NCBI GenBank assembly: GCA_963773065.1
Contig: CAVYZN010000015.1
Span: forward strand, 1 to 49,280
Length of the DNA stretch: 49,280 bases
Reading direction: 5' to 3'
Source: an uncultured Gammaproteobacteria bacterium
Lineage (GTDB): Bacteria > Pseudomonadota > Gammaproteobacteria > UBA9214
Part shown: positions 35,588 through 49,280 of the stretch, piece after piece
How positions within the stretch are numbered: the stretch's first letter is position 1
Layout of the letters: each line of letters begins with the position of its first letter
The notes under the pieces: generated by a model
Told to the model about the DNA's origin: nothing
What the model saw: only the letters and a program-made list of their open reading frames with translations
Databases searched by the model: none
Program-made: the position numbers and the translations under genes

Positions 35588-36513
35588 ATGAACGCCAGTC
35601 ATCAGCCCATCTTCCAGCGCCGTTTCCTGCGGCCCCGCTACTGGCCGCACTGGTGCATCATGCTGCTGTGCTGCATCCTGGCCCTGTTGCCCGGCGGGGT
35701 GCGGGCCGACTCGGGGATGCGGCGGGTCTGCTGCTCTCCCGCATCGATTCCAAAGCCGGACGCATCGCGCGGACGAACCTGTCGCTCTGCTACCCGCGGT
35801 TGACGGAGGTGGAGAAACGCCGCCTGCTCCGGGAACACTTCCGCACCACCGCGCATATCCTGCTCGGTTATGGCCAGTTGCTGGTGCGCTCGCCGCGACA
35901 CCTGCGCGAGCAGTTAGACATTCATGGCCTGGAGCGCGTCGAGAAGATCGCCGCCGATGGTAACAGCATCATTCTGCTCTCGCCGCACTTCCTGGCCATC
36001 GAGTACACCGGACAATGCCTGTCACGCATACACCCCATGGTCAGCATGGTGCGGCTGCACAGCAATCCGCTCATGGACTGGATCGTGACGCGTATCCGCA
36101 CCCGCTACGGCGGCGAGGTCTACAGCCACAAGGCCAGCCTCTTCCCCCTGGTGAAGGCCACTCGCGGCGGCAAATGGCTTTGTTATTTTCCGGACGAGGA
36201 CCGGGGCGCGGAGAACAGCTTGTTCATCCCGTTCTGCGGGGTCCCCAAGGCGACCATGCCGCTGCTGGGAAGACTGGCCGCAAGTTGCCGCGCGATTGTC
36301 ATTCCCACGCTGAGCTTCTACTCGCCCGAGCGGCGCCGGTTTACCATCGAGTTCCTGGAGCCGATGAAGGATTTCCCGAGCGGGGACATCCAGCGCGATG
36401 CGCAGCGGATGAACCGGCTCATCGAAGACATGGTGAACCGGAATCCCGCGCAATACCTGTGGACGGCCAAGATCTTCCGGACCCGCCCGCCGGGCGAACC
36501 GGGATTCTATTAA
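35588..36513 (+). CDS. Lipid A lauroyl/myristoyl acyltransferase (LpxL/LpxM family), frameshift ~35700
   Basis: FLRPRYWPHW N-terminus, ARTNLSLCYP, PHFLAIE, PDED, QYLW..KIFRTRP. Confidence 0.85.
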
Positions 36514-36575
36514 CTCGTCTGACCCGAACCCGCCTGGCGGCAAAGCGGCAGACTGGAACGCCTTGCCGGGCGGCA

Positions 36576-37139
36576 CTACCGACAATATTCGGTGAGCAGT
36601 TCATTGACTGCTTTGATGTCATATGCGGCGGGATCGAAATCATCCCCAATCCATTCTTTACAGTCTTCGTGTTCCGGGTGATCCGGATCATTCAACGCTT
36701 CCAATAAATTGGCGTATCCCCATATGCCACCCACATCCTCCGGTGGACACGCACCTTTGGCATTGATACATCGCGGCAGGCCGGCTCCCGGCTCGAAGGT
36801 CAGGATTTTTTCCAGCGTTATTTGATGTTCCCAACTATCCCCGAAATCGTATTCATAAATTATCGATTCCTTTTCCTTCTTCAGCAGTTGATTGAGCCTG
36901 AACATTTTCTCATCGAGGATTTCCGGGAAATCGAGATCAGGATCCAACACTCCATAAAGTCGGCCATTGGCAATAAATTGATGTAAATGGGAGTCCGTCC
37001 AACCCATGACGATTTGTATCGCCACATGGAATTTTGGAAGCCCCACGGAATCGTCTATGAGTAACCGACGCCAGATAGGGGGTTTCGCACCCTTCAGGCT
37101 GATCTTCAACTGATACGTTTTTCGCAGTGCTTGTGGCAA
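36576..37139 (-). CDS. pRiA4b ORF-3 (TnpR-like) family protein
   Basis: PPIWRR, MGWTDSHLHQF, YEYDFGDSWEH, CPPEDVGG. Confidence 0.9.
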   Translation of the reverse strand: MPQALRKTYQLKISLKGAKPPIWRRLLIDDSVGLPKFHVAIQIVMGWTDSHLHQFIANGRLYGVLDPDLDFPEILDEKMFRLNQLLKKEKESIIYEYDFGDSWEHQITLEKILTFEPGAGLPRCINAKGACPPEDVGGIWGYANLLEALNDPDHPEHEDCKEWIGDDFDPAAYDIKAVNELLTEYCR

Positions 37140-37161
37140 TGCATATTCCTCCGTCTATGGT

Positions 37162-37227
37162 ACGCAACGAGTTGGCTGACGCGGGGCCGGCGAAGTAGGT
37201 CGTCGCCACTCCGGCGACTGGTTATGC
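37162..37227 (-). mobile_element. Degenerate integron attC site
   Basis: GCATAAC...GTTGCGT on the minus strand with partial internal complementarity, just before the RBS of the next gene. Confidence 0.5.
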
Positions 37228-37250
37228 CACATCAGGATATCCCTGAACAC

Positions 37251-37348
37251 GTCATCCCCGCGAAAGCGGGGATCCAGTAACCCACTGATCCTGAGCAGGC
37301 TGAAGTGTCGCTCCCCGCTTTCGGGGGGACAAGCTTCGCGGGAATGAC
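37251..37348. repeat. GTCATCCCCGCGAAAGCGGGGATCCAG...CGCGGGAATGAC palindromic repeat
   Basis: Characteristic arms. Confidence 0.7.
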
Positions 37349-37378
37349 AGGCTTAATCAGAGCCTTCTTGGTCTTTCT

Positions 37379-37759
37379 TCAGTGTATCTTTTCACCGGTC
37401 CACCGATCCCGCCCTTTCCAGAAAGGGCATTGCGGACATTCCTCACCCTCCGGGTAATCGATGCCCTCTTCATGGGGACAGCCAATGATTCTGTCCGGCA
37501 TCACTACAGAAACGGCTCCATTGCTGGAGAGAAATTCCTTAACCTCTCGCAATATATTTTCGTCATTTCTGACATCTTCTTCCGAGAACCACTTTTTCAT
37601 GGGTTCCGGTTCGACGCCTTCATAGGCCACGATACTGACAACCACCTTGGTTGCTTTCTTGTCATCTGGTCCGTAGTGAGCAATTGATGCGATAGGATAG
37701 CCGCGAAACCCTTTCTTCGCCTTTTTTTGGAGAGATTTACTTGTCTTCTTAATGGGCAT
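37379..37759 (-). CDS. Cassette-type hypothetical protein
   Basis: GFRGYPIASIAHYGPD, IIGCPHEEGIDYPEGEECPQCPFW; lower GC. Confidence 0.8.
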   Translation of the reverse strand: MPIKKTSKSLQKKAKKGFRGYPIASIAHYGPDDKKATKVVVSIVAYEGVEPEPMKKWFSEEDVRNDENILREVKEFLSSNGAVSVVMPDRIIGCPHEEGIDYPEGEECPQCPFWKGRDRWTGEKIH

Positions 37760-37779
37760 TGTCTTTAGATCTGATTGCG

Positions 37780-37850
37780 GAATAACGCCGCGCTTCACCG
37801 GCCGAAGCATGCATAGCGCGCGAAGATCCGGTGCAAGCGCTTCGTTAGCG
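37780..37850 (-). mobile_element. Integron attC site
   Basis: CGCTAAC-gaagcgcttgcaccgg...ccggtgaagcgcggc-GTTATTC. Confidence 0.7.
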
Positions 37851-37888
37851 CGTCACACTGACGACGAACCTTCACCGCGCGCCACCCA

Positions 37889-37992
37889 CTACGCTTTAAG
37901 ATCAACCGCAGCCCGATAGCTCCCATCCATGTAGAAAGGCACCGACGAGTGATCGTGGACGATGCGCCATCGCCCACTTGCCTTCCGGTCAA
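37889..37992 (-). pseudogene. 3' fragment of an NTF2/SnoaL-like (YybH-type) gene
   Basis: GRWRIVHDHSSVPFYMDGSYRAAVDLKA*, cut upstream by hairpin element 1. Confidence 0.7.
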
Positions 37993-38076
37993 GGAAATAG
38001 GGACATTCTGGTTTACCATCCGTGGTGCCGAAAGGCACGTATGGATATCGAAAAAACCAGAATGTCCCCATTATTC
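37993..38076. repeat. Hairpin element copy 1
   Basis: GGGACATTCTGGTTT...AAACCAGAATGTCCCC. Confidence 0.95.
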
Positions 38077-38814
38077 CTATCGGGCCACGCGAACCACAAC
38101 GAAGATAAAGGCCGCCCCCAGGCACGTAAGCCCGATGAGGCTGCCGGTAATGGCCGAGCGGTTCTGAGAGTGCGCCTCGGGCAGAATGTCGGATGCCCCG
38201 ATATACAAGAGGAACCCGGCGAAGAACCCTAAATAGAGCATCAGCATGGCGGTGGGGACCCGAAAAAGCAACGTAGAGGCCGCGCCTAAAACGGGAGCGA
38301 GCGCATCCAACACAAGCATCGCAAACGAACGCAGTGTCGTGTTGCGATGAACGAGCATCAAGCTGACCGTGTTGAGGCCATCACAAAAGTCGTGCGCAAT
38401 CACAGCAATGGCCACGATAATCCCGACCGCTTCCGAGGCTTGAAACGCCAGACCAATCGCGACTCCATCCATGAGGCTGTGCCCGGCCAGGGCAAGGGCC
38501 GAGAGGACGCCTACCTGCGGGTGATGATGCGCGGCGTACTCGGCCTCGTGGACATGGTGGACCAATACGAACTTCTCGAGGCTGTGAAAGAGAAGAAAGC
38601 CGACAACGAGTGCAATCATTGCCCCGGTGGCGTCAATCCCTTGCTCGCGGGCCAGCTCGAAAATCTCGGGCAAAATGTCAAAACTCACGACGCCCAAGAG
38701 CACGCCGGCTGTGAAGCTGAGAATAAAGTGCAGCCGGTCGCGGAACTTGAGGGCAAACAGTCCACCGGCAAAGGTCGAGAAGAATGCCGCAAGCGACAGT
38801 AATACAGCGCTCAT
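38077..38814 (-). CDS. ZIP-family metal transporter
   Basis: FTAGVLL, His-rich loop, HSLMDG, HDFCDG. Confidence 0.92.
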   Translation of the reverse strand: MSAVLLSLAAFFSTFAGGLFALKFRDRLHFILSFTAGVLLGVVSFDILPEIFELAREQGIDATGAMIALVVGFLLFHSLEKFVLVHHVHEAEYAAHHHPQVGVLSALALAGHSLMDGVAIGLAFQASEAVGIIVAIAVIAHDFCDGLNTVSLMLVHRNTTLRSFAMLVLDALAPVLGAASTLLFRVPTAMLMLYLGFFAGFLLYIGASDILPEAHSQNRSAITGSLIGLTCLGAAFIFVVVRVAR

Positions 38815-39027
38815 AGACCCCTCAGGTGTAGTAGTAGTTGACCTTTCTCGTTTCGCACGCGACGTCTGCTACGCATCGAGAACTCGAAGAATATCATATG
38901 TCCAGGAGCCAATAGACCGTATTACCCGATATGACATGCTGGACAGGTAAGTGACACAAGGAGTTGCCCGAATTGCGGATAAATACCCTGTGTGGCGCGA
39001 CAGGGTCGAAGACCACACTTAGGCCCG

Positions 39028-39138
39028 CAATCATGCGCATTTACAACGAACAGATTGTTCGACTATGATTCGCCGGCATGATATCGCCATCCCCGCTGGC
39101 CTTTTCCTACCAAGAGATTTTTGGTGGGAGCAGTCAAA
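39028..39138 (+). promoter_or_regulatory. ~110-bp duplicated promoter module, copy 1
   Basis: TTTACA-N18-TATGAT with CGAACA-gat-TGTTCG in the spacer; near-identical to 42249-42359. Confidence 0.7.
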
Positions 39139-39214
39139 TTCACCAAGAAGCTTGATTATCTTTCTGAGACCGTCCATGACGGTCACCATCAAGCCATATC
39201 AGCAAAGTAGATCC

Positions 39215-41926
39215 ATGAGACCAAAAGCGCTGCGCCTCACGACAACTGTCGTATCCAAACCCGGTCGCTGCCGTTTCGCCGCCATGCTGGCCGCGACCCT
39301 CGCCATGAGCCTCGGGGCGCGGGCGGATGCGTCGGCGCCGGACGCGGGCGTGCTGCGCGCGACGCTGGAAAACGGGCTGCGCCTGGTCATCGTCCGCAAC
39401 GACCTGGCGCCGGTGGTATCCGTGGAAGTCAACTACCTCGCGGGCTCGGATGAGGCGCCGGATGGCTTTCCGGGCATGGCACACGCCCAGGAGCACATGA
39501 TGTTTCGCGGCAGCCCCGGCCTCACGGGCGATCAGCTTGCCTACCTCGACGCGGTGCTAGGTGGCATGGCCAACGCGGGCACCCAGCAGGGCGTGACCCA
39601 GTACTCGAATACGGTGCCGGCCAAGGACCTCGGATTGGCCCTGCGGATCGAGTCGATCCGCATGCGCGGTGTCTCCGACAGTCAGGACGCTTGGGTCAAG
39701 GAACGCGGGGCGATCGAACAGGAGGTCGCTCGGGACCTCTCCGAGCCCGAGTATGTCCTCTATACGCAGCTCCTCGAGACCCTGTTCGAGGGCACGCCCT
39801 ATGCGCACGACGCCCTGGGGACCCATGCGTCCTTCGAGCAGACGACCGGGGCGATGCTGAAGGACTACTACAACCGCTGGTACGCCCCGAACAACGCGAT
39901 CCTCGTGATCGCCGGGGACGTGCAGCCGGAGTCCGTGCTGGACCAGGTCAAGGCGCTGTTCGGCGACATTCCCAAGAAGGAGATACCCGCCCGACCCGAG
40001 GTGCGACTCGCCAAACTGCATCCGCGGACCATCCGGGGCCAGACGGACAAGGCCAACGGCATGGTTCTGGCGGCCTTCCGTGTACCCGGCTCCGACAGCC
40101 CCGATCATGCGGCCGTGTCGCTGCTCGCGGATGTGCTCGGCAGCCAGCGCGGCGACCTCTATGCCTTGGCCGCGGACGGCAAGGCCCTGACGACGGAAGC
40201 CCAGGTGGACCTGCTGCCCCAGGCCGGACTCGCCTATGTGGCTGCAGAGTTCCCTAAGGGACGGGACCCGTCGGTCCTGATGGATCAGCTCAAGGCGGTC
40301 GTCGCGAATGACGCCGAGCACGGCTTCCCGCCGGACCTCGTGGAGGCCGCGAAGCGGCGCGAGCTCATGGAGCTGGAGCTCAAGAAAAACTCGATCCCCG
40401 AGCTGGCGGGCGCCTGGTCCCAGGCCTTGGCCGTCGAGGGGCGCAGCTCGCCCGAGGACGACATCGTCGCCATGAGTCGGGTCACGGCAGCCGACGTGGA
40501 TCGGGTTGCCCGGGAGTATCTACGGCTCGACCAGGCGGTGTTCGCGGTCCTGACCTCCGAGGCATCAGGCAAGCCGACGGCGGGCAAGGGGTTCGGCGGC
40601 GCCGAGTCCTTTGCACCCGAGCACCCGGGTGCAGTCGAGCCGCCGGACTGGGCGCGGCAGGCCCTGGAGTCCCCGTCCGTGCCGGAGTCCCGGGTCCGCC
40701 CGATCGACGAGACCCTGCCGAACGGATTGCGGCTGATCATCCAGCCGGTCTCCGCGAGCGACACCGTAAGCGTTTTCGGGCGCGTGCGCACCGAGCCGGG
40801 GATGCAGGCCCCAACCGGCGAGGAAGGTGTCGATCGGGTTCTGGAGCGATCCTTCGACTATGGCACCCAGACTCTGGATCGACTCGCGTTCCAGCGCGCC
40901 CTCGACGAGATCGGCGCGGACGAGTCCGCGGGGGCCAGCTTTTCGGTCCAATCCCTGGCCGCACAAATCGACCGTGGCGTGGAGCTGCTCGCGGACCACG
41001 AGCTGCATCCGGCCTTCAAGCAGGACGACTTCGAAATCGTCCGGACCCAGGTCGCCGAGGAGGTCGCCGGGGAGTTGGAGAGCCCGGCTTACCTGACACA
41101 GCACGCGCTGCTGAACGCGATCTATCCGAAAGGGGACCCGAAGCAGCGCCACGCGACCCCTCAGAGCGTCGCGGGCCTGACGCTTGCGGATATGGAAGGC
41201 TACTATCGGCAGGTCTTTCGACCCGATATGACCACGATCGTCGTGATCGGCAAGATCGACCCGGACCGAGCCAAGGCCCTGGTCGTGCGGTACTTCGGGG
41301 ACTGGAAGGCCGAGGGGCCGAAGCCGGCCATCGACCTGCCTCGGGTGCCGCCCAACCCACCTTCGACGACCGCGGTCCCCGACAGGAGCCGAGTCCAGGA
41401 CCAGGTCATCCTGTCCCAGACCTTAGGTATGGACAGGTTCGATCCGGACTATTACCCCGTGGAACTCGGCAACCATGTCCTTGGGGGCGGCTTCTATGCG
41501 ACCCGTCTGTATCGCGACTTGCGCGAGCGCAACGGGCTCGTCTACAGCGTCGGCGCCTCCATCACCGCGAAGAGGACCCGGGCCGTCTATCTGATCGAGT
41601 ATGCCTGTGACCCGAAGGATGTCTCCCGGGCGCGGGCGATTGTGGAGCGGGATCTCCGGGAGATGCAGACCGATCCCGTGGACGCCGCGTCGCTGCTCCA
41701 GGCCAAGTCACTGCTGATGACCGAGACCGCCCTCGAGGAGGCGAGCGTCAGCGACATTTCAGACGGGCTGCTGGACCGGGCGACCCTGGGCCTGCCCCTC
41801 GACGAGCCGGTCCGGGCCGCGCGCCGCTACCTCGCGCTCGACGCGCAGCAGGTCGAGGCGGCGTTCGCGCGCCGCCTGCGGCTCAAGGACCTGGCGCAGG
41901 TCACGCAAGGGCCGGAACCGCATTGA
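39215..41926 (+). CDS. M16 (pitrilysin-family) zinc protease; start uncertain
   Basis: LENGL, HAQEH (HxxEH), WYAPNNA, second half with LGGG..TRLYRDLRE..GLVY. Confidence 0.92.
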   Translation: MRPKALRLTTTVVSKPGRCRFAAMLAATLAMSLGARADASAPDAGVLRATLENGLRLVIVRNDLAPVVSVEVNYLAGSDEAPDGFPGMAHAQEHMMFRGSPGLTGDQLAYLDAVLGGMANAGTQQGVTQYSNTVPAKDLGLALRIESIRMRGVSDSQDAWVKERGAIEQEVARDLSEPEYVLYTQLLETLFEGTPYAHDALGTHASFEQTTGAMLKDYYNRWYAPNNAILVIAGDVQPESVLDQVKALFGDIPKKEIPARPEVRLAKLHPRTIRGQTDKANGMVLAAFRVPGSDSPDHAAVSLLADVLGSQRGDLYALAADGKALTTEAQVDLLPQAGLAYVAAEFPKGRDPSVLMDQLKAVVANDAEHGFPPDLVEAAKRRELMELELKKNSIPELAGAWSQALAVEGRSSPEDDIVAMSRVTAADVDRVAREYLRLDQAVFAVLTSEASGKPTAGKGFGGAESFAPEHPGAVEPPDWARQALESPSVPESRVRPIDETLPNGLRLIIQPVSASDTVSVFGRVRTEPGMQAPTGEEGVDRVLERSFDYGTQTLDRLAFQRALDEIGADESAGASFSVQSLAAQIDRGVELLADHELHPAFKQDDFEIVRTQVAEEVAGELESPAYLTQHALLNAIYPKGDPKQRHATPQSVAGLTLADMEGYYRQVFRPDMTTIVVIGKIDPDRAKALVVRYFGDWKAEGPKPAIDLPRVPPNPPSTTAVPDRSRVQDQVILSQTLGMDRFDPDYYPVELGNHVLGGGFYATRLYRDLRERNGLVYSVGASITAKRTRAVYLIEYACDPKDVSRARAIVERDLREMQTDPVDAASLLQAKSLLMTETALEEASVSDISDGLLDRATLGLPLDEPVRAARRYLALDAQQVEAAFARRLRLKDLAQVTQGPEPH

Positions 41927-41949
41927 ACCATCCGGAATCCTCAGAGAAC

Positions 41950-42045
41950 GAGAAATGGGGACATTCTGGTTTACCATCTTTAACCATCGATGGTGCCGAC
42001 AGGCGCCTATGGATATCGAAAAAAACCAGAATGTCCCCATTATTC
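41950..42045. repeat. Hairpin element copy 2
   Basis: 96 bp, identical to copy 3. Confidence 0.97.
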
Positions 42046-42248
42046 CACCGGAATCCTAACCACCGCATACGCGGGCAAGCCATCTGATCAAAAAGGCAGG
42101 GCTGACGCACAGCACACACCGGAGCCGTTACGCTGATCAAACGTCTCTGCACATGCGCTGAATCTGCATAAGTGTGCGTCAAGGGTTTGCATAAATAATT
42201 TCAGATAACGGACCATAAGTCTGCGATATGGTCGAAGAGCACTTACTT

Positions 42249-42359
42249 CAATCATGCGCATTTACAACGACCAGATTGTTCGACTATGATTCGCCGGCAT
42301 GATATCGCCATTCCCGCTGGCCTTTTCCTGCCAAGAAATTTTTGGTGGGAGCAGTCAAA
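42249..42359 (+). promoter_or_regulatory. ~110-bp duplicated promoter module, copy 2
   Basis: As copy 1, with a few substitutions. Confidence 0.7.
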
Positions 42360-42377
42360 GTTACTGCATAAAGGACT

Positions 42378-42713
42378 GTGCCCAACATGCAATTGACGTC
42401 GCGAGTCATGAGTAGCAGAGCCTCCGCGTCGCGCTTTCACCGCGCCATGAGATGGTGTCTTATCGTCACGCTCTGTATCCAGCTCATCGCGCTCACCCAG
42501 CACCGCCATGATTTAACGGCGCATCCCGATGACTGCGAGGCGTGCTACCTCACGGCATTAACATCGGGCGGAAGTACCCCTCCTCTCGATCCGGCCATGT
42601 TGGCGCTGCCGTTCTTCCAGACATTCTGGATTGCCGTGCATCGCGTTTATGTCATCCATGCCGCCTTCCGGGATTTTATCCGTCCGCTGCCTCAAGCACC
42701 TCCCCAAATTTAG
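42378..42713 (+). CDS. DUF2946-like small His/CxxC protein; start uncertain
   Basis: TM helix, HRH...H..DCEAC, C-terminal QAPP. Confidence 0.6.
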   Translation: MPNMQLTSRVMSSRASASRFHRAMRWCLIVTLCIQLIALTQHRHDLTAHPDDCEACYLTALTSGGSTPPLDPAMLALPFFQTFWIAVHRVYVIHAAFRDFIRPLPQAPPQI

Positions 42714-42830
42714 CTCGCCAGTCCAGTTTCACTGATTGATGCCGTTGCTTTCTTGACTCACGAGCAGCGCTCATGGGTTCGCCATTGATTATTGGCGAGT
42801 TAAATCAAAATCCGTTTGAGGTGAATAATT

Positions 42831-43487
42831 ATGACCTTCATCGAATCGAAAGGCATTATTGTTCGGCGGCCGGGGGCGCAGGCCCTGCATTTTGCCGACC
42901 TGTCTATCCATAAGAGAGATTCCGTGCTACTGCTCGGCCCTTCAGGATCGGGCAAGACAACGCTGCTCTCCGTTCTGGCAGGATTGTTGCCGCCTGGCAC
43001 GGGTCGGGTACTGGTTGAAAACCAGGACATCTATGCCCTGCATTCGCGTATACGCGATCATCTGCGCGGACAACAATTCGGTTTCGTATTCCAAACGTTG
43101 CATCTGCTGCCGTCGCTGACCTTGAGGCAGAACATTGCCTTGGCCGCCGACATGCTGGGCCTTAAGGTGGAAGAGGGACGGCTTGACTATCTTCTCGGCA
43201 CGCTGGGCCTTGCCGACAAGGCGCACCGCAGGCCCGATGCCTTAAGCCAGGGTGAACAGCAGCGCGCTGCCATCGCCCGTGCGGTTCTCAATCGTCCTTC
43301 CATCATCATCGCGGACGAGCCAACCTCGGCGTTGGATGATGCCAATGCCCGTAAAGTCATGGATTTGCTGGAACATCAGGCGCAGGAAACAGGGGCGGCA
43401 TTGCTGATCGCCACCCATGACACCCGCATCATCAACCGGTTTGAAAATGTCATTCATCTGAATAACGAGATGAAGGAGGTCGCATGA
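42831..43487 (+). CDS. ABC transporter ATP-binding protein (LolD/ZrgB-like)
   Basis: GPSGSGKT, LSQGEQQR, ADEPTSALD. Confidence 0.93.
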   Translation: MTFIESKGIIVRRPGAQALHFADLSIHKRDSVLLLGPSGSGKTTLLSVLAGLLPPGTGRVLVENQDIYALHSRIRDHLRGQQFGFVFQTLHLLPSLTLRQNIALAADMLGLKVEEGRLDYLLGTLGLADKAHRRPDALSQGEQQRAAIARAVLNRPSIIIADEPTSALDDANARKVMDLLEHQAQETGAALLIATHDTRIINRFENVIHLNNEMKEVA

Positions 43488-44689
43488 ATGCCGTAACGCT
43501 TGCGCTCGCCGCGGTCAGATCGCGCCCGCTGCATTCCGCGCTCAGCGTGATGGCGGCGGCGGCGGGTATTGCCCTGTTGTGCGCCATTTTCCTGCTGTCA
43601 CAGGCGATTGATGAAGGCTTGTCGCGTAATGCGCGTGGAATAGATGTCGTCGCCGGCGCGAAGGGAAGTCCTATCCAACTGGTGCTCTCCGCCATCTACC
43701 ATGTAGATGTGCCGAACGGGAATATCGAAATGGAGGATTACCAGCACCTCGCCCACAATCCGCAGGTGAAGCAGGCCATTCCCCTGGCGCTGGGCGATAA
43801 TTACAAAGGCTGGCGGGTGGTCGGCACCACGCCGGACTATCTCTCGCTCTACCATGCGCAGGTCGCGGAAGGTCGGGTCTTCAGTCAACCCTTCGAGGCT
43901 GTCGCCGGTGCCTTGACCGGCTTACCGATCGGCTCGAAATTCGCGGCGTTGCACGGTTTCGCCGCCGACAGCACTGATGTTCACAACTTCCACCTCTATA
44001 CCATCACCGGCGTGCTGAAACCGACGGGAACCGTACTGGACAGGCTGATCACCACCCCCGTCGAAAGCGTGCAGCAGTTGCACAGCCACCCGGACGCCGA
44101 CGATCCCGACGCGGCGGAAGAGCTTAAGCTCGGCCATCAGATCACGGCGGTGTTGATCAAGGTCAAAAGCCCGGTGGCGATAATGAATCTGCCGCGCGAG
44201 ATCAATCGCTCCACCAACATCCTTGCCGCCAGCCCCAGCTATCAGATGGCGCGCCTCTCGCAAAGTCTCGGCTTCGGACGGGATGTGCTGACCGCACTGG
44301 GCATCGGTATTGTCATTCTCTCGATGCTGATGCTGCTCTCCACGCTGGCTTCCAGCCTCACCGCCCGCCGCTACGATCTCGCGGTACTGCGAGTGCTTGG
44401 CGCCTCGCCGCAGAAACTCTCGGCCACCGTCATCGCCGAAGGTCTGCTGTTGAGCGGCGTCGGGTCAGTAACGGGGTTGATCGCTGGACATATTATCGCT
44501 TATGTCATGGCCTCAATGATCGGCAGCCTCAGTGGGGTCGTCTTGCCCGTGACGCTGCTGGCGCCGCAGCCATGGGATGCCGGTTTTCTGATGATCGGTC
44601 TGGGCGCCGGTCTGTTGGCGGGGCTGGTTCCGGCCCTGTCAGCGGCACAGACCGACATCGCCGGGCTTCTGGCCAGGGGGCGGGCATGA
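43484..44689 (+). CDS. FtsX-like ABC permease (ZrgC-like)
   Basis: GAKGSPIQLVLS, PLALGDNYKG, RRYDLAVLRVLGAS. Confidence 0.88.
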   Translation: MNAVTLALAAVRSRPLHSALSVMAAAAGIALLCAIFLLSQAIDEGLSRNARGIDVVAGAKGSPIQLVLSAIYHVDVPNGNIEMEDYQHLAHNPQVKQAIPLALGDNYKGWRVVGTTPDYLSLYHAQVAEGRVFSQPFEAVAGALTGLPIGSKFAALHGFAADSTDVHNFHLYTITGVLKPTGTVLDRLITTPVESVQQLHSHPDADDPDAAEELKLGHQITAVLIKVKSPVAIMNLPREINRSTNILAASPSYQMARLSQSLGFGRDVLTALGIGIVILSMLMLLSTLASSLTARRYDLAVLRVLGASPQKLSATVIAEGLLLSGVGSVTGLIAGHIIAYVMASMIGSLSGVVLPVTLLAPQPWDAGFLMIGLGAGLLAGLVPALSAAQTDIAGLLARGRA

Positions 44690-45210
44690 AATACCTGCTG
44701 GTTTTATGCGCGCTGCTGTTTATTGCCCCACCCCTCCTGGCTTCGACTCTCGAGAAAGGCGCTGACGCGCCGACCCGTACTCTCGAGGACTACATCAAAG
44801 ACTATGTCGATGTTCCCCCAGGGGCGACCGACTGGAAAGTCTTCGGCAAGACGAAGCAAATCGATATCAGGGGCAAAACCAAAGATGGCTATGACTTAGA
44901 ATATTACAAGCCCAAATTTACACCCGAAGTCACGGCCCTCGACGGCAAGCAAATAACCATCAAGGGTTTCATGTTTCCACTGAATGAAACGGAAGAGCAG
45001 ACGTTGTTTCTGATCGGCCCGTTCCCTATCAACTGCCCGTTCCAATACCATGTCGGCCCTTCGTTGGTCATTGAAGTACACACCGACAAGCATCCGGTAA
45101 AATTTTCCTACGATCCCATTGTGATTACGGGCACATTGCAATTGGTCGCCAAAGATCCTGAAAACAATACCTTCTATCGACTACTGGATGCAAAACAGGT
45201 GAGTCAATGA
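44686..45210 (+). CDS. DUF3299-family exported protein
   Basis: LDGKQITIKGFMFPL...CPF...VIEV; ATGA overlap with the permease. Confidence 0.75.
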   Translation: MKYLLVLCALLFIAPPLLASTLEKGADAPTRTLEDYIKDYVDVPPGATDWKVFGKTKQIDIRGKTKDGYDLEYYKPKFTPEVTALDGKQITIKGFMFPLNETEEQTLFLIGPFPINCPFQYHVGPSLVIEVHTDKHPVKFSYDPIVITGTLQLVAKDPENNTFYRLLDAKQVSQ

Positions 45211-45336
45211 AATCTTTTGAACAAGGTAATGCGGGTTGTGTCAACCAGCGGCAGGACGCTTTGTTCGTTGTTGAGTAACAGCAACTAAACGAAGTGCCAG
45301 ATAAATGGGAGTAGGTAAATGTCCGGATTCCAATGG

Positions 45337-45537
45337 TTAGTTGCCGTAATACTGGTAATACTGTGCAACCGGTGACTTGTCGTCATCCATATAAAACTGG
45401 GGGCTGGAAAGACGCGGGTCGTTGAGACTCGTTGGTGCTGGCGTATAACTGTACCCATTGATTGAGGACGTAAACACTGGTGTGGATGAACACGCGCACA
45501 GCAACAGAACCGAAACCACGCTTAGCAATATCTTCAC
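45337..45537 (-). CDS. Small lipoprotein
   Basis: LLLCAC lipobox, GGAGGT RBS. Confidence 0.7.
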   Translation of the reverse strand: MKILLSVVSVLLLCACSSTPVFTSSINGYSYTPAPTSLNDPRLSSPQFYMDDDKSPVAQYYQYYGN

Positions 45538-45685
45538 GGTGACCTCCTGCCTACTCCACTATGGAGTATACAAAAATACTCTCAGCGCTTTACCAGTGTC
45601 AATGACATTCGGGACAAACCACGTTTTCGTATGATCGCTGAAATTCGTATTGCCACAAGTGGCAGTCACATCAACGCTGTGGGAG

Positions 45686-45781
45686 GAGAAATGGGGACAT
45701 TCTGGTTTACCATCTTTAACCATCGATGGTGCCGACAGGCGCCTATGGATATCGAAAAAAACCAGAATGTCCCCATTATTC
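45686..45781. repeat. Hairpin element copy 3
   Basis: Identical to copy 2. Confidence 0.97.
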
Positions 45782-45853
45782 TCGCTTTTCATAGCCAAGC
45801 TTGGCCAAGACCGATGCAACTTCCCGGCCGGAGACCCGAGGAAGAAGGCTCAC
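45776..45853 (-). pseudogene. hicA: HicA toxin truncated after about 24 codons
   Basis: GTG-SLLPRVSGREVASVLAKLGYE; overlaps the hicB stop; the TAA is supplied by element 3. Confidence 0.8.
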
Positions 45854-46062
45854 ACCGCTACTTCGACAATTTCTTCGCTGATCGAGGGAGGGACAGGCTC
45901 GTCGTGCGCTTTCAAGCTCTCCAGATAAGCCTCTATCGCTTCTTGAATATTCTTCAACGCCTCCGCCCTTGTTTCTCCTTGTGAGATACATCCCGGTAAG
46001 GCTGGAACCTCCGCGACGAAGACACCGTCTTCGTCCTGCTCGATAATCACTCGATATTTCAT
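45850..46062 (-). CDS. hicB: HicB-family antitoxin
   Basis: YRVIIEQDEDGVFVAEVPALPGCISQGET..EAL.NI.EAI. Confidence 0.92.
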   Translation of the reverse strand: MKYRVIIEQDEDGVFVAEVPALPGCISQGETRAEALKNIQEAIEAYLESLKAHDEPVPPSISEEIVEVAV

Positions 46063-46132
46063 CTTGCCCTCCTTACTTGAGATCGGTGGTACGAGCATGG
46101 AAAAGTATAGTTGGGCCTGTGGGCTGTCAAGG

Positions 46133-46224
46133 GAGAAATGGGACATTCTGGTTTACCATCCTTACCATCCATGGTGCCGACAGGCGCGTATGGATATCGA
46201 AAAAACCAGAATGTCCCCTTTATT
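46133..46224. repeat. Hairpin element copy 4
   Basis: Same arms, variant interior. Confidence 0.95.
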
Positions 46225-46264
46225 AACGCTGCCCTTGCGTTCATAAAAATACCGATCCGGTTCA

Positions 46265-46950
46265 TCAACCGGACCCGAAGGTGTCACAACTGCCGATGTC
46301 GCCGTGCTCGATGCCGCGTTTGAACCACTCAACGCGCTGCCGGGAGGTTCCGTGGGTGAAGGTTTCGGGCACCACGTAGCCGCTGCCCTGCTTCTGCAGG
46401 CGGTCATCGCCGATGGCGCTGGCCGCGTTGAGCGCCTCCTCGATATCGCCTGCTTCCAGCACTTGGCGGCTGCGATCGGCGTGATTACCCCAGACCCCGG
46501 CGAAGCAGTCCGCCTGCAGTTCCAGCTTGACCGAGAGTGCATTGACCTCCGCCTTGCCGATACCACGCTGCGCTGATTGGACCCGATCGCTGATACCCAA
46601 CAGGTTCTGCACATGATGGCCCACCTCGTGGGCGATGACGTAGGCCTGCGCGAAATCCCCGGGCGCCCCGTGCGTGCGCCTGAGTTCATCGAAGAACGCG
46701 AGATCGATGTAGACTTTCCGGTCGCCGGGACAGTAGAACGGACCCATGGCGGCACTGCCCGTGCCGCAGGCGGACTGTACGGCGCCGCTGTAGAGCACCA
46801 GGTTCGGTTCCTGGTAAGTTTTCCCCGACTGCCGGAAAATTTCCGTCCAGGTGTCCTCGGTATCGGCCAGCACCACCGACACGAAATCCGCCATCTGTTC
46901 CTCCTCCGGTGAGGGCTGCCGGTCGGTCTGGCTGACATCGGTCCCCGTGG
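46265..46950 (-). pseudogene. ypfJ: 5'-truncated neutral zinc metallopeptidase copy
   Basis: GPFYCP, AHEVGHH, ELQADC; N-terminal TM region replaced by element 5. Confidence 0.85.
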
Positions 46951-46954
46951 TGAG

Positions 46955-47054
46955 GAGAAATGGGGACATTCTGGTTTACGATCTTTAACGATCGATGGTG
47001 CTCGAAACAGGCGCCTATGGATATCGAAAAAACCAGAATTACTCCCCATCATTC
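46955..47054. repeat. Hairpin element copy 5 (degenerate right arm)
   Basis: GAGAAATGGGGACATTCTGGTTT...AAACCAGAATTACTCCCC. Confidence 0.92.
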
Positions 47055-47067
47055 CCCCTGACTTGCC

Positions 47068-47129
47068 GCATCACGCCGACGTTCACGCGTGCATATTTAC
47101 CATCTGGCTGTGCAACAGCTTTGTTGGCC
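47068..47129 (-). mobile_element. Degenerate attC after mrr
   Basis: GGCCAAC-aaagctgttgcac...gtgaacgtcggc-GTGATGC (GTT changed to GTG). Confidence 0.5.
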
Positions 47130-47135
47130 GTCATC

Positions 47136-48014
47136 TCATATTGTTCGAAGAATTCTTGGCTTTAGCTCATAATCCTTTTTCGGGCGCTGCCCCATGTTGA
47201 GTTCCTCGAACATTTCGACCATTTTGTCGCCGTCAACGAGTTCTATCGGAGTGGCCCCGTCGCGTATCGCTTCTCGTTTGGCATCAGTCGTGAACGTTCC
47301 AGTGGTCAGAATGATGCCTTTGTCGGCACGACCTTGGAGCGCACCTCGGAAATCACGAACGGCCGAGACAGCCACTGCCCCTTGGTACCGTTTGCATTGG
47401 AACAAGACTTTGAAGGACACAAGGGGGTTAATTTGCAAGATGCCGTGCCCATCGATTCCGCCGTCGCCGGATCGTCCAGTGACGGCAACTTGCTGGATGT
47501 TCCGATTCACGAAGAAGTCGCTGGCAGACATGTTCGAAATGCCGCCGAGGAGGGGGCGTTTGTAGTGTCGATAGAAGGCCGGTTTTGTAGTCCACAACGA
47601 TGCGCCAGAGATCCGGCATTGGCGTCATCCTCCGTAACAGTCGGTTCAGCTCCCTTGCGAAGTTTGCGCTCTGCTCCATACTTTTGATGGACGTCCCGGA
47701 AAAGTTTGAGGATGGAGACTCCTCATCAATCTTAGTATCACGGCCCTTTCCGGTGAGCCCCCAAACTCCGCGCTGAGAAGAACTGAGCAATCCCGCTTTG
47801 ACCATGTAGAATCTTGCCCATGCAATCTGGTTGCGAATGCGGGACCCGCCGTTCTTGTTAGTGATCTTCCTGCTCCGCTTCGGGAATGTTCATGCGCTCG
47901 ATAACAATATCGGTCACCTCGGCAGGGCGGCCAGAGCCGCCGAGTTCTCGAAGAACCTCAACAATCGGCATACAGAACCGAAGGGAATTCCTTAGGTCCT
48001 TTACGTTTGGGCAT
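47136..48014 (-). pseudogene. mrr: Mrr-family type IV restriction endonuclease with multiple frameshifts
   Basis: LRELGGSGR, NQIAWARFYM, RGVW.LT, SGDGGIDG, QCKRY, ILTTGTFT..A, IELVDG. Confidence 0.85.
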
Positions 48015-48089
48015 ATTTCCTTTCCTATCCTCTCTTCTCAGTGACCTACAATACGCCGCTCCCGCATTCATCATGACGCCAATGGCTGA

Positions 48090-48937
48090 TCAGCCGGACC
48101 CGAAGGTGTCGCAACTGCCGATGTCGCCGCGCTCGATGCCGCGTTTGAACCATTCGACGCGCTGCCGGGAGGTCCCGTGGGTGAAGGTCTCGGGGACCAC
48201 GTAGCCCCTGCCCTGCTTCTGCAGGCGGTCATCGCCGATGGCGCTGGCCGCGTTGAGCGCCTCCTCGATATCGCCTTCTTCCAGCACCTGGCGGCTGCGT
48301 CGGCGTGATTGCCCCAGAGTCCGGCGAAGCAGTCCGCCTGCAGCTCCAGCTTGACCGAGAGCGCATTGGTCTCCGCCTTGCCGAGACCACGCTGCGCGGA
48401 TTGGACCCGATCGCTGATACCCAGCAGGTTCTGCACGTGATGGCCCACCTCGTGGGCGATGACGTAGGCCTGCGCGAAATCCCCGGGTGCGCCGTGCGTG
48501 CGCCTGAGTTCATCAAAGAATGCGAGATCGATGTAGACTTTCCGGTCGCCGGGACAGTAGAACGGACCCATGGCGGCGCTGCCCGTGCCGCAGGCGGACT
48601 GTACGGCGCCGCTGTAGAGCACCAGGTTGGGTTCCTGGTAGGTTTTTCCCGACTGCCGGAAAATTTCCTTCCAGGTGTCCTCGGTATCGGCCAGCACCAC
48701 CGATACGAAATCCGCCATCTGTTCCTCTTCCGGTGAGTGCTGCCGGTCGGTCTGATTGACATCGGTGCCCGTGCCGGTCTGCATCATCAGGATATCCAGG
48801 GGGTTGATGCCGAGAAAATAGCTGGCGGCTAGCACCAGCACGATGGTGCCGATGCCGCCCTTGAAGGCGACGGGTCCGGCGCGCCGGCCGCGCTGGTCCT
48901 CGATATTGCTACTCCGGCGGCCGGTTTTCCAGCGCAT
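48090..48937 (-). CDS. ypfJ: Neutral zinc metallopeptidase (YpfJ family), frameshift ~48292
   Basis: [32 protein letters not shown]. Confidence 0.9.
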
Positions 48938-49244
48938 GGGGGTCTCCTTTCTGGAATAGGAAAACGGAATCCGGGATCATGTTACACCCGGCAGGCGCAT
49001 GAGGTCGCGCCGCCCGTCGATCATACCCGCTTGCGGACGAGCCGAAAAGCAGCTTGAGCGAGAGCAGCAGCAGCGGTGCGCCGTGCAGGATCAGGTCGAA
49101 GATATCGATCGGTCTGACCAGCGTTCCCGAGACCAGCATCTTCAGCTTCTGCCACAGGTGCGGTTCCGGGACGAACGGCGCCAGCGCCATCACCACGGCG
49201 AGCGGCAGCAGCAGGGAAAGCGGAATTCTGTCGAGCCATTTCAT
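48909..49244 (-). CDS. Small conserved membrane protein; 3' end uncertain
   Basis: LAPFVPEPHLWQKLKML..G.L.RPIDIFDL..H. Confidence 0.65.
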   Translation of the reverse strand: MKWLDRIPLSLLLPLAVVMALAPFVPEPHLWQKLKMLVSGTLVRPIDIFDLILHGAPLLLLSLKLLFGSSASGYDRRAARPHAPAGCNMIPDSVFLFQKGDPHALENRPPE

Positions 49245-49280
49245 GGTTTACAGCCGAGATTGGTTGTACCAAAAGGGCGA

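Follow-up and report, generated by a model that had tools for sequence, protein, structure and literature searches.

In the sections of PMC3116915 and PMC6006769 cited here, REPINs are defined as two inverted repetitive extragenic palindromic (REP) sequences with a spacer between them, which fold as single-stranded DNA (ssDNA) into a hairpin, lie in extragenic DNA and occur together with a REP-associated tyrosine transposase (RAYT) that is flanked by the same repeat. Atypical repeats without the canonical tag are reported, in the part of PMC6006769 on subclass 2.6 and class 3, for those groups, and REPs have been credited with host roles, such as those of mRNA 3'-end stabilisers, terminators and protein-binding sites (PMC3479197 and PMC3733652, both in part). 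Here we analyse five short hairpin elements in one stretch of DNA, the window, which is the complete 49,280-bp contig C15 of the metagenome-assembled genome (MAG) G000 of an uncultured gammaproteobacterium (3.84 Mb in 33 contigs, ~60% G+C; 90.9% complete and 6.3% contaminated). A preliminary description had read these elements as the junctions of a non-integron gene-capture array. The evidence presented below leads to another view, namely, that they are very probably REPIN-type repeats of a REPIN-RAYT system with atypical, tag-less arms. Their positions in the window are the following.

37993..38078, plus strand: putative REPIN copy 1, a short form without the 10-nt TTTAACCATC-type insertion of copies 2-5
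41950..42045, plus strand: putative REPIN copy 2, 24 nt past the stop codon of an M16 protease gene, with a 10-nt direct repeat on both sides
45686..45781, plus strand: putative REPIN copy 3, identical to copy 2 at 96 of 96 positions
46133..46226, plus strand: putative REPIN copy 4, with an identity of about 91-93% to copies 2 and 3
46955..~47054, plus strand: putative REPIN copy 5, with a degenerate right arm (AAACCAGAATTACTCCCC), 5 nt away from where the gene stump ypfJ' is cut short at its 5' end

All five co-oriented elements that had been outlined before were recovered at these positions by the repeat search; they measure 84-100 nt and the orientation of their core is the same in five out of five. 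When the 15-nt arm GGGACATTCTGGTTT was searched with at most 2 mismatches, the window yielded 9 matches (5 left arms and 4 right arms) where 0.06 were expected, a number reached by none of 100 shuffles, and all nine lie within 38000-46977, in line with the earlier statement that the elements occur nowhere else in the window. The reported identity of copies 2 and 3 holds as well; they form the only identical pair, the others differing mutually, and their 19-nt arms are fully complementary. Folding as ssDNA was computed for four copies and one reverse strand, and these five folds have energies of -18.8 to -27.4 kcal/mol with z-scores of -3.7 to -7.2, none of 200 shuffles being as good (copy 1: -23.5 kcal/mol, z -6.7; copy 2: -27.4 kcal/mol, z -7.2; copy 4: -20.9 kcal/mol, z -4.4; copy 5: -18.8 kcal/mol, z -3.7). 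The right end of copy 1 abuts the stop codon of a ZIP transporter gene (38077-38079). The preliminary description had seen no abutting target duplication, which is correct for four of the five copies and incorrect for copy 2, where the 10-nt direct repeat CCGGAATCCT is present at 41933-41942 and 42049-42058. A search of 37000-49280 against Rfam (cmscan, E up to 1) gave no match.

The elements are not specific to this locus: in the whole genome the arm, with at most 2 mismatches, has 54 matches on 11 contigs, and the pairing of left with right arms gives about 25 elements on 10 of the 33 contigs (C2, C6, C8, C11, C14, C15, C16, C18, C23 and C32). With at most 1 mismatch, 41 matches remain in G000, and a reversed-pattern control gave 0 in all 41 genomes searched. 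The conserved part of the family consists of the arms and about 10 nt outward of them (consensus GGGGAAATGGGGACATTCTGGTTT ... AAACCAGAATGTCCCCATTATTCC); the REP arm itself is ~25 nt long (consensus GGGGAAATGGGGACATTCTGGTTT), the terminal inverted repeats measure 23-25 nt, and the spacers vary by locus, from 12 nt (at C11:28116) to 52 nt. An alignment of 12 copies gives a consensus hairpin of 29 pairs for the main subfamily, in which covariation is weak, i.e. double changes are found at 2 pairs only. The copies have a clear extragenic bias, 6 of the 25 lying inside a stop-free frame of at least 200 codons against 379 of 500 random sites, and among the 9 copies examined those in long open frames are positioned near a frame end. 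A flanking direct repeat of at least 8 nt is absent from 24 of the 25 entries, the sole exception being copy 2 of the window. Most of the other genomic copies are solitary or stand beside an insertion sequence (IS). One compound element was observed on C6 (123602-123739), in which three tandem left arms (at 123602, 123627 and 123672) are followed by one right arm, with a second full copy 84 nt further on; it resembles the short tandem REPIN clusters of P. fluorescens. A search of the literature (main texts) with 12-13-mers of the arm returned matches that, by their titles, concern other subjects (DNA-replication enzymes, a synthetic nucleic-acid machine, human or animal genes), and none on bacterial repeats.

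A trans-acting HUH/Y1 RAYT-like nuclease encoded outside the window had been guessed to act on the elements, and a gene that fits this guess is indeed present on another contig, bracketed by inverted arms. In an 884-bp unit (C11:147769-148652), the left arm GGGACATTCTGGTTT (at 147769, +) and the right arm AAAGTAGAATGTCCC (at 148638, -) enclose an open reading frame (ORF) of 222 amino acids (C11:147967-148635). Its product matches the Pfam family Y1_Tnp (IS200-like transposase) at 63.6 bits, the cut-off being 23; the best NCBIfam model is REP_Tyr_transpos (NF047646; E 1.7e-20, 73.4 bits), whereas the IS200 model of the same collection scores 24.4 bits against a cut-off of 55. In an alignment of the C11 protein with five homologues, all six sequences have H60 and H62, which make up the HUH motif, as well as R119/V121/E122/N124, and five of the six have Y120. 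The Y---N spacing is of the class-2 (TnpA-REP) type, as that class is presented in the relevant part of PMC6006769, and the protein has a C-terminal extension of ~85 amino acids. The C11 gene is the only one of 10 genomic Y1_Tnp matches with arms on both sides, in a genome that is 90.9% complete and may hold a second copy; the Y1_Tnp gene on C28 has a single arm match, with 3 mismatches and 1.3 kb distant. Five further RAYT-like Y1 genes were noted (C17:85844-86311, C8:39961-40512, C28:46591-47025, C26:19620-19946 and C11:253712-253963), which are 30-38% identical to the C11 RAYT where compared, as were three IS200-type genes. None of these five or three genes is flanked by the arm studied here. 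Judged from sequence, the RAYT-like Y1/HUH transposase of C11 is most likely the cognate enzyme of the elements, and its unit, i.e. a gene between one left and one right arm, is a REPtron-like layout.

The link between arm and transposase recurs in other genomes. Among 40 relatives the arm (at most 1 mismatch) is frequent only in a second genus, in all five of its genomes (4-28 matches), and one of these (G015) contains, between a left and a right arm, the pieces of a broken homologue, 52-62% identical and with stop codons. A scan of one genome per species revealed 10 stretches with paired exact arms, in MAGs of Ectothiorhodospiraceae/Gammaproteobacteria, in one contig of Skermanella stibiiresistens and in one Pirellulales MAG. 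One of these stretches, from a gammaproteobacterial MAG (L158), encodes a full-length homologue (65% identity over 220 amino acids) that has short hairpins with the same arms on both sides. The same 15-mer arm is kept around transposases that share only 52-65% identity. In the window's own genus, the four other species show 0-6 arm matches and no close homologue, the best RAYT identity being 31-35%, whereas the sister genus, with its RAYTs broken or missing, still has its 4-28 matches, a contrast that can help to judge for how long REPIN populations persist once their transposase is gone. Both 15-nt arms are exact, and the spacers unrelated, in contig41 of Skermanella stibiiresistens SB22 (L151, 4527-4591) and in the Pirellulales MAG (L156, 3809-3879), that is, in an alphaproteobacterium and a planctomycete MAG, both remote from the gammaproteobacterial lineages with most of the copies; horizontal spread, bin contamination or convergence could possibly explain the arms at these two loci.

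The clustering, the co-orientation and the linkage to a Y1/RAYT gene for which the preliminary description had suggested looking are all found, the last in the form of the C11 unit. Fourteen pairs of elements lie within 5 kb of each other where 0.77 were expected (none of 5000 simulations reached 14), and 10 of the 11 neighbouring pairs are co-oriented (binomial probability 0.006, for pairs that are not independent). Clusters of the same kind as that in the window occur on five other contigs. Core identity is 0.83 within C15 and 0.92 within C6, against 0.66 between the two; each cluster has its own spacer subfamily, and the 10-nt insertion of copies 2-5 is private to them. A 1.53-kb repeat with at least 4 copies at 99% (C6:123993-125522, C2:93016-94543, C32:29923-31454 and C4:30446-31699) is probably an IS and is not bounded by arms; since the clusters on C6 and C2 enclose it, permissive 'junk' regions may add to the clustering. 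Main-subfamily copies in '+' orientation are found in negative GC skew on C6 and C15, and the single '-' copy of this subfamily, on C11, is found in positive skew; on C23 the sign of the skew depends on the interval chosen (+0.007 at +/-10 kb, negative at +/-25 and +/-50 kb), and on C14 the skew is about zero. With five loci, weak skews and no closed genome, a tie between orientation and replication strand is only a hint. A strand bias tied to replication, towards the lagging-strand template, is documented for IS608/ISDra2 in the part of PMC6006769 that treats them, and by analogy clustering and co-orientation would fit a short-range, strand-specific and replication-coupled copying of the elements.

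A dispersed family that folds into hairpins, shares its arms with a transposase gene (in three genomes), prefers extragenic DNA and lacks target duplications corresponds to the REPIN definition, and we therefore regard its members as REPIN-type repeats with a cognate RAYT. Clustering, co-orientation and one presence/absence polymorphism (see below) are observed beside these properties. The genes and pseudogenes around the elements are the following.

36576-37139: PRiA4_ORF3 (plasmid pRiA4b ORF-3-like) gene, just upstream of the array
38077..38814, minus strand: ZIP-family zinc transporter gene (Pfam PF02535, E 7.6e-17)
38997..39138, plus strand: direct repeat D6, copy 1, which spans DNA before the M16 ORF and the ORF's nominal 5' end
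39065..41926, plus strand: M16 (insulinase-type) zinc protease gene (Pfam PF05193 and PF00675)
42223..42359, plus strand: direct repeat D6, copy 2, preceding the Zrg-like operon
42831-43487, plus strand: ABC ATPase gene (Pfam)
43484-44689, plus strand: FtsX/MacB-type permease gene (Pfam)
44572-45210, plus strand: DUF3299 protein gene (Pfam)
45853..46062, minus strand: hicB-type antitoxin gene, 70 amino acids, apparently intact (Pfam PF15919, E 4.4e-13)
46264..46949, minus strand: ypfJ', a 5'-truncated Zn_peptidase paralogue (profile positions 71-290 of 290)
47136..47805, minus strand: mrr-type restriction endonuclease gene, interrupted, with its parts in two frames (Mrr_cat 47136-47597; weak Mrr_N piece 47428-47805)
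48071..48937, minus strand: ypfJ (Zn_peptidase), full-length at its 5' end, with a frameshift (one base missing after 48299 in comparison with ypfJ')

The genes between the copies lie on both strands and each has its own upstream region. Pfam bears out the earlier calls of ZIP, M16, ABC/FtsX/DUF3299, HicB and a 5'-truncated YpfJ-type Zn_peptidase. The trio of ABC ATPase, FtsX permease and DUF3299 protein (42831..45210, +) is a putative zinc uptake operon, similar by sequence to ZrgC/ZrgB/ZrgE, which Table 1 of PMC9817125 gives as components of a Zur-regulated zinc importer of Vibrio; the operon (3.6 kb) is bracketed by the identical copies 2 and 3. The two D6 copies (38997-39138 and 42223-42359) are 90% identical over 142 nt, precede the M16 gene and the ABC operon, respectively, and may represent a common promoter or leader of a zinc-regulated island; inspection of D6 by eye yielded no defensible Zur box, nor did Rfam yield a match in it. 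The nucleotide homology of the M16 gene to relatives is confined to 39199/39259-41940. Because ZIP, M16, the ZrgC/ZrgB/ZrgE-like ABC system and YpfJ, and thereby all intact genes, are linked to zinc, the earlier claim that the elements separate unrelated segments is doubtful; zinc co-regulation of the locus is a thematic observation only.

The reading frame 3' of hicB, ...VSGREVASVLAKLGYEKRE, extends into copy 3; the resulting piece of 34 amino acids had been described as a hicA' fragment, and it looks HicA-like and may be a 5' remnant of hicA, an identity that is unconfirmed, the piece having matched 0 Pfam families at E up to 5. The stump ypfJ' is 94.5% identical over 686 nt to 48089-48773 in ypfJ and is without about 55 N-terminal codons; its homology begins exactly at the stop codon, as for a decayed paralogue rather than for a random captured piece, and stops 5 nt from copy 5, the distance to copy 4 being 37 nt. 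The frame of ypfJ itself shifts after ...GNHAD, and related contigs of a public metagenome run (X2, see below) have an extra A after 48299, so that this gene could be a true pseudogene or could contain a consensus error. The split mrr gene, the frameshifted ypfJ, the truncated ypfJ' and the PRiA4_ORF3 gene would, on the plainest account, be parts of an accessory, decaying region. The G+C content falls from about 65% to 48-59% in parts of 36-48 kb, which, with the PRiA4_ORF3 gene, is consistent with an accessory or acquired region. A second and unrelated family of short G+C-rich hairpin repeats (GTCATCCCCGCGAAAGCGGGGATCC-like) is present in the window at 37243-37290 and 37335-37362, with 17 further matches on seven other contigs. 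Its summed depth in the metagenome contigs is very high, and it probably constitutes another REP family, perhaps linked to another RAYT-like gene.

How the array could have formed is what we infer from these observations and from better-known relatives of the enzyme. As in E. coli TnpA-REP and IS200/IS605, the C11 RAYT would recognise the folded arms in ssDNA, probably at replication forks, would cut and rejoin them via a 5'-phosphotyrosine link (with H60, H62 and Y120 as candidate residues), and would copy or move the hairpin to other non-coding sites without target duplication. The array in the window would then best be explained by repeated short-range insertion of one local subfamily, each time on the same strand, the targets being the spacers and dispensable genes of an accessory, decaying, pseudogene-rich and zinc-themed island. 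Deletions and rearrangements, possibly by recombination between co-oriented copies, would have left the stumps ypfJ' and possibly hicA'. If transposition is indeed short-range, strand-specific and replication-coupled, it would yield clustered, co-oriented subfamilies such as these.

Several points weigh against the REPIN interpretation, some of them in the elements and the enzyme and others, given in the next paragraphs, in the related strains. The arm consensus GGGGAAATGGGGACATTCTGGTTT does not contain the canonical REP tag (5' GT[AG]G, expected at the hairpin foot), and a single arm is not itself palindromic. Neither an excised product or circle nor an activity of the enzyme was observed. 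Given the tag-less repeats of subclass 2.6 and class 3, the missing tag bars the name 'canonical REP' but not the term 'REPtron-like'. The 73.4 bits of the C11 ORF fall below the curated equivalog cut-off of 80 for NF047646, a phmmer search of the C11 RAYT against the PDB sequences (E 0.01) found no relative, and the gene is flanked in G000 by single arms, the right one with 2 mismatches, instead of by full REPINs. Finally, clustering at the kb scale departs from the random spacing of the REPINs of P. fluorescens, whose neighbour distances above 200-400 bp fitted a random model in the analysis excerpted from PMC3116915.

For the comparison of strains, contigs from four public metagenome runs were aligned with 36500-49280. 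As these contigs are mostly 90-95% alike to the window, they stem from relatives and not from this strain (the best-matching run has 0.25 of the sampled words, the other runs 0.15 or less), and parts left uncovered in some runs, e.g. 46748-48028 in X1, were not taken as absence. Contigs of the runs X1 and X2 join 41944 to 42060 and thereby skip 115 nt, i.e. copy 2 and a few flanking bases, with joint sides of only 28 and 29 nt (below the 30-nt caution) in contigs that are 90-95% alike. With 10-nt direct repeats on both sides of copy 2, a deletion between them could have removed it, in which case the joint would not show the state before insertion; the insertion/deletion polymorphism is real-looking, in either direction. 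A contig of X3 joins 39099 to 42322 (side 110 nt), by which 3222 nt with the M16 gene and copy 2 are gone; the ends of this joint lie in the 142-nt D6 repeat, and the only unit-sized difference seen is thus bounded by D6 and not by hairpins. Many joints of the type 465xx to 484xx were rejected as cross-mapping between the two ypfJ copies.

The edges of the elements, on the other side, often match points of rearrangement or truncation. A contig of X1 contains a ypfJ-like piece (to 48169), 28 other letters and then 38075, the right edge of copy 1; the flanks of copy 1 are not rejoined in this relative, and the breakpoint of the rearrangement falls at the element edge. The match of an X1 contig ends at 45679, 7 nt before copy 3, and the M16 homology of the related genome G001 and of the metagenome locus L049 ends at 41940, 10 nt before copy 2; the truncation of ypfJ' and the frame that follows hicB complete these coincidences. 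None of the five filled junctions is bridged by a contig among those listed for the four runs, which leaves the assembly of the array without independent confirmation.

Synteny of the 11.6-kb locus was found in none of the 40 relatives, in which only the M16, ZIP and ypfJ genes match, and downstream of 41940 the two M16 loci of G001 and L049, the best metagenome locus, have nothing in common with it. G001 has 2 M16 and 3 ZIP copies without hairpins. Of 80 M16 metagenome loci fetched, only 4 are at least 67% identical, and one (L058) has a single arm-like match with at most 2 mismatches. A clean empty site for the copies on C14, C11 and C6 was found in none of 4 genomes of the same genus. In the comparison across strains that the preliminary description had proposed, the one clear gain or loss of a unit is D6-bounded, and the homology of relatives often stops at or near the element edges. 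The features by which, according to the same description, an ordinary dispersed repeat would be known were likewise encountered in part, that is as rejoinable flanks (copy 2 in X1 and X2, with the short joint sides of 28 and 29 nt), but neither as random orientation nor as target duplications (24 of 25 entries have none).

The headline of the preliminary description, a non-integron gene-capture array, is not supported by a family that is dispersed, of which copy 2 is missing alone in related strains, next to which the one unit gain or loss is D6-bounded, and whose neighbouring genes lie on both strands. In its broadest form we consider the idea of gene capture improbable. It is distinctly improbable in the form in which the hairpins are sites where the RAYT or homologous recombination joins, deletes and moves modules, such that pairs of hairpins bracket mobilisable units. 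What speaks for capture is that the Zrg-like operon stands between two copies identical at 96 of 96 positions, that 5 nt separate ypfJ' from copy 5 and 37 nt separate it from copy 4, that the homology of relatives stops at or near 41940, 45679 and 38075, and that X1 has a ypfJ-like piece beside the ZIP stop in place of copy 1 and its left flank; the co-orientation of 10 of the 11 neighbouring pairs, the 24 of 25 entries without target duplication and the RAYT gene, which is itself 'cargo' between two arms, agree with it as well. However, two runs lack copy 2 alone and have its flanks joined, the single gain or loss of unit size (3222 nt, M16 and copy 2) ends in D6 and not in hairpins, and no segment was found duplicated along with its bracketing hairpins. 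Moreover, the homology of ypfJ' from the stop codon onwards fits a decayed paralogue, the source ypfJ is without a nearby arm, G001 multiplies M16 and ZIP without hairpins, and most other copies are solitary or IS-adjacent. A combination of processes, in which the RAYT copies hairpins over a short range onto one replication strand and pairs of hairpins become the ends of larger movable or deletable modules, is also unlikely. If it were true, the Zrg-like operon (copies 2-3) and the ypfJ' stump (copies 4-5) would be such modules, and REPIN arrays would remodel and occasionally capture accessory genes, a role that is not attributed to REPIN-RAYT systems in the literature consulted.

The terminal inverted repeats of 23-25 nt, the size of 84-100 nt, the dispersal and the 10-nt direct repeat around copy 2 would suit an ordinary miniature inverted-repeat transposable element (MITE), i.e. 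a deletion derivative of a DDE-type IS that is moved via its terminal inverted repeats. We hold this to be very improbable, as a flanking direct repeat of at least 8 nt is seen in only 1 of 25 entries, the only long arm-bounded unit in the genome encodes a Y1 transposase and not a DDE enzyme, and the multi-copy 1.53-kb repeat inside the C6 and C2 clusters is not arm-bounded. The chance is just as slim that the hairpins serve the host (as mRNA 3'-end stabilisers, terminators or protein-binding sites) and are kept by selection at gene ends, for which the positions of copies 1 and 2 right behind the stop codons of ZIP and M16 could be quoted: no T-run follows the hairpin, the Rfam search (E up to 1) was without a match, copies behind a minus-strand gene (ZIP) and a plus-strand gene (M16) point the same way, copies also stand beside gene stumps, and the linkage to a transposase is left unexplained. 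As a secondary role, a host function is compatible with the REPIN interpretation. An assembly artefact, in which the segments were mis-joined at the repeated 96-nt sequence of a MAG, is extremely unlikely. In its favour are the state of the genome (33 contigs, completeness 90.9%, contamination 6.3%), the identity of copies 2 and 3 and the fact that no listed public contig bridges a filled junction; against it, the copies other than these two differ, common reads are longer than 96 nt, repeats usually make assemblers break rather than join, and like clusters exist on five other contigs.

An apparent gene-capture array is thus recast, with high probability, as one half of a REPIN-RAYT pair in an uncultured gammaproteobacterial lineage, and the case cautions against the over-reading of hairpin arrays in metagenome-assembled genomes. 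Like integron attC sites and their cassettes, the elements are imperfect palindromes that vary in length and in their middle part and are conserved at their ends; they fold as ssDNA and form a co-oriented array between genes. They differ in that the arms are without the RYYYAAC/GTTRRRY ends (the R''/R' core sites), as the preliminary description had already stated and the arm consensus bears out; in that the genes lie on both strands with upstream regions of their own and are not promoterless; in that the elements are dispersed genome-wide; and in that the linked enzyme is a Y1 HUH transposase and not a tyrosine recombinase (a search for integrases was not made). With IS200/IS605 (class 1 Y1) the system shares the Y1 HUH fold, the recognition of hairpins, which is predicted here, and the lack of target duplication. 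Nevertheless, the IS200-type genes of this genome (127-143 bits to Y1_Tnp, about 160 amino acids) are not arm-flanked, and the RAYT unit is single-copy and has inverted instead of asymmetric ends.

A further comparison is with the REP sequences and bacterial interspersed mosaic elements (BIMEs) of E. coli and their TnpA-REP (RayT), the 'REPtron', as far as the portions of PMC3333891, PMC3479197 and PMC6006769 cited here describe them. In contrast to that system, the arms have no 5' GT[AG]G tag, and the protein misses the equivalog cut-off of NCBIfam, had no relative in the phmmer search of PDB sequences and carries the C-terminal extension of ~85 amino acids. In both cases, however, the enzyme has the HUH and Y---N signature, its gene stands between inverted repeats of which further copies occur in intergenic DNA (PMC6006769, in part), and it is presumed to act on folded ssDNA without target duplication (from the same part of that source). 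The REPINs and RAYTs of P. fluorescens SBW25, in the account given by the cited sections of PMC3116915, number hundreds of copies against about 25 here, are random in their spacing above 200-400 bp instead of forming co-oriented clusters of 1-5 kb with cluster-specific subfamilies, and have a RAYT flanked by a REPIN cluster where the C11 gene has single arms; the arm, moreover, is unrelated in sequence to that of SBW25 and is not itself a palindrome. At a higher level the two systems nevertheless have the same build: conserved inverted arms enclose a less conserved spacer that takes part in pairing, the whole folds into a ssDNA hairpin, the elements are extragenic, dispersed and divided into several subfamilies, and a single-copy Y1 gene is flanked by the repeat that belongs to it.

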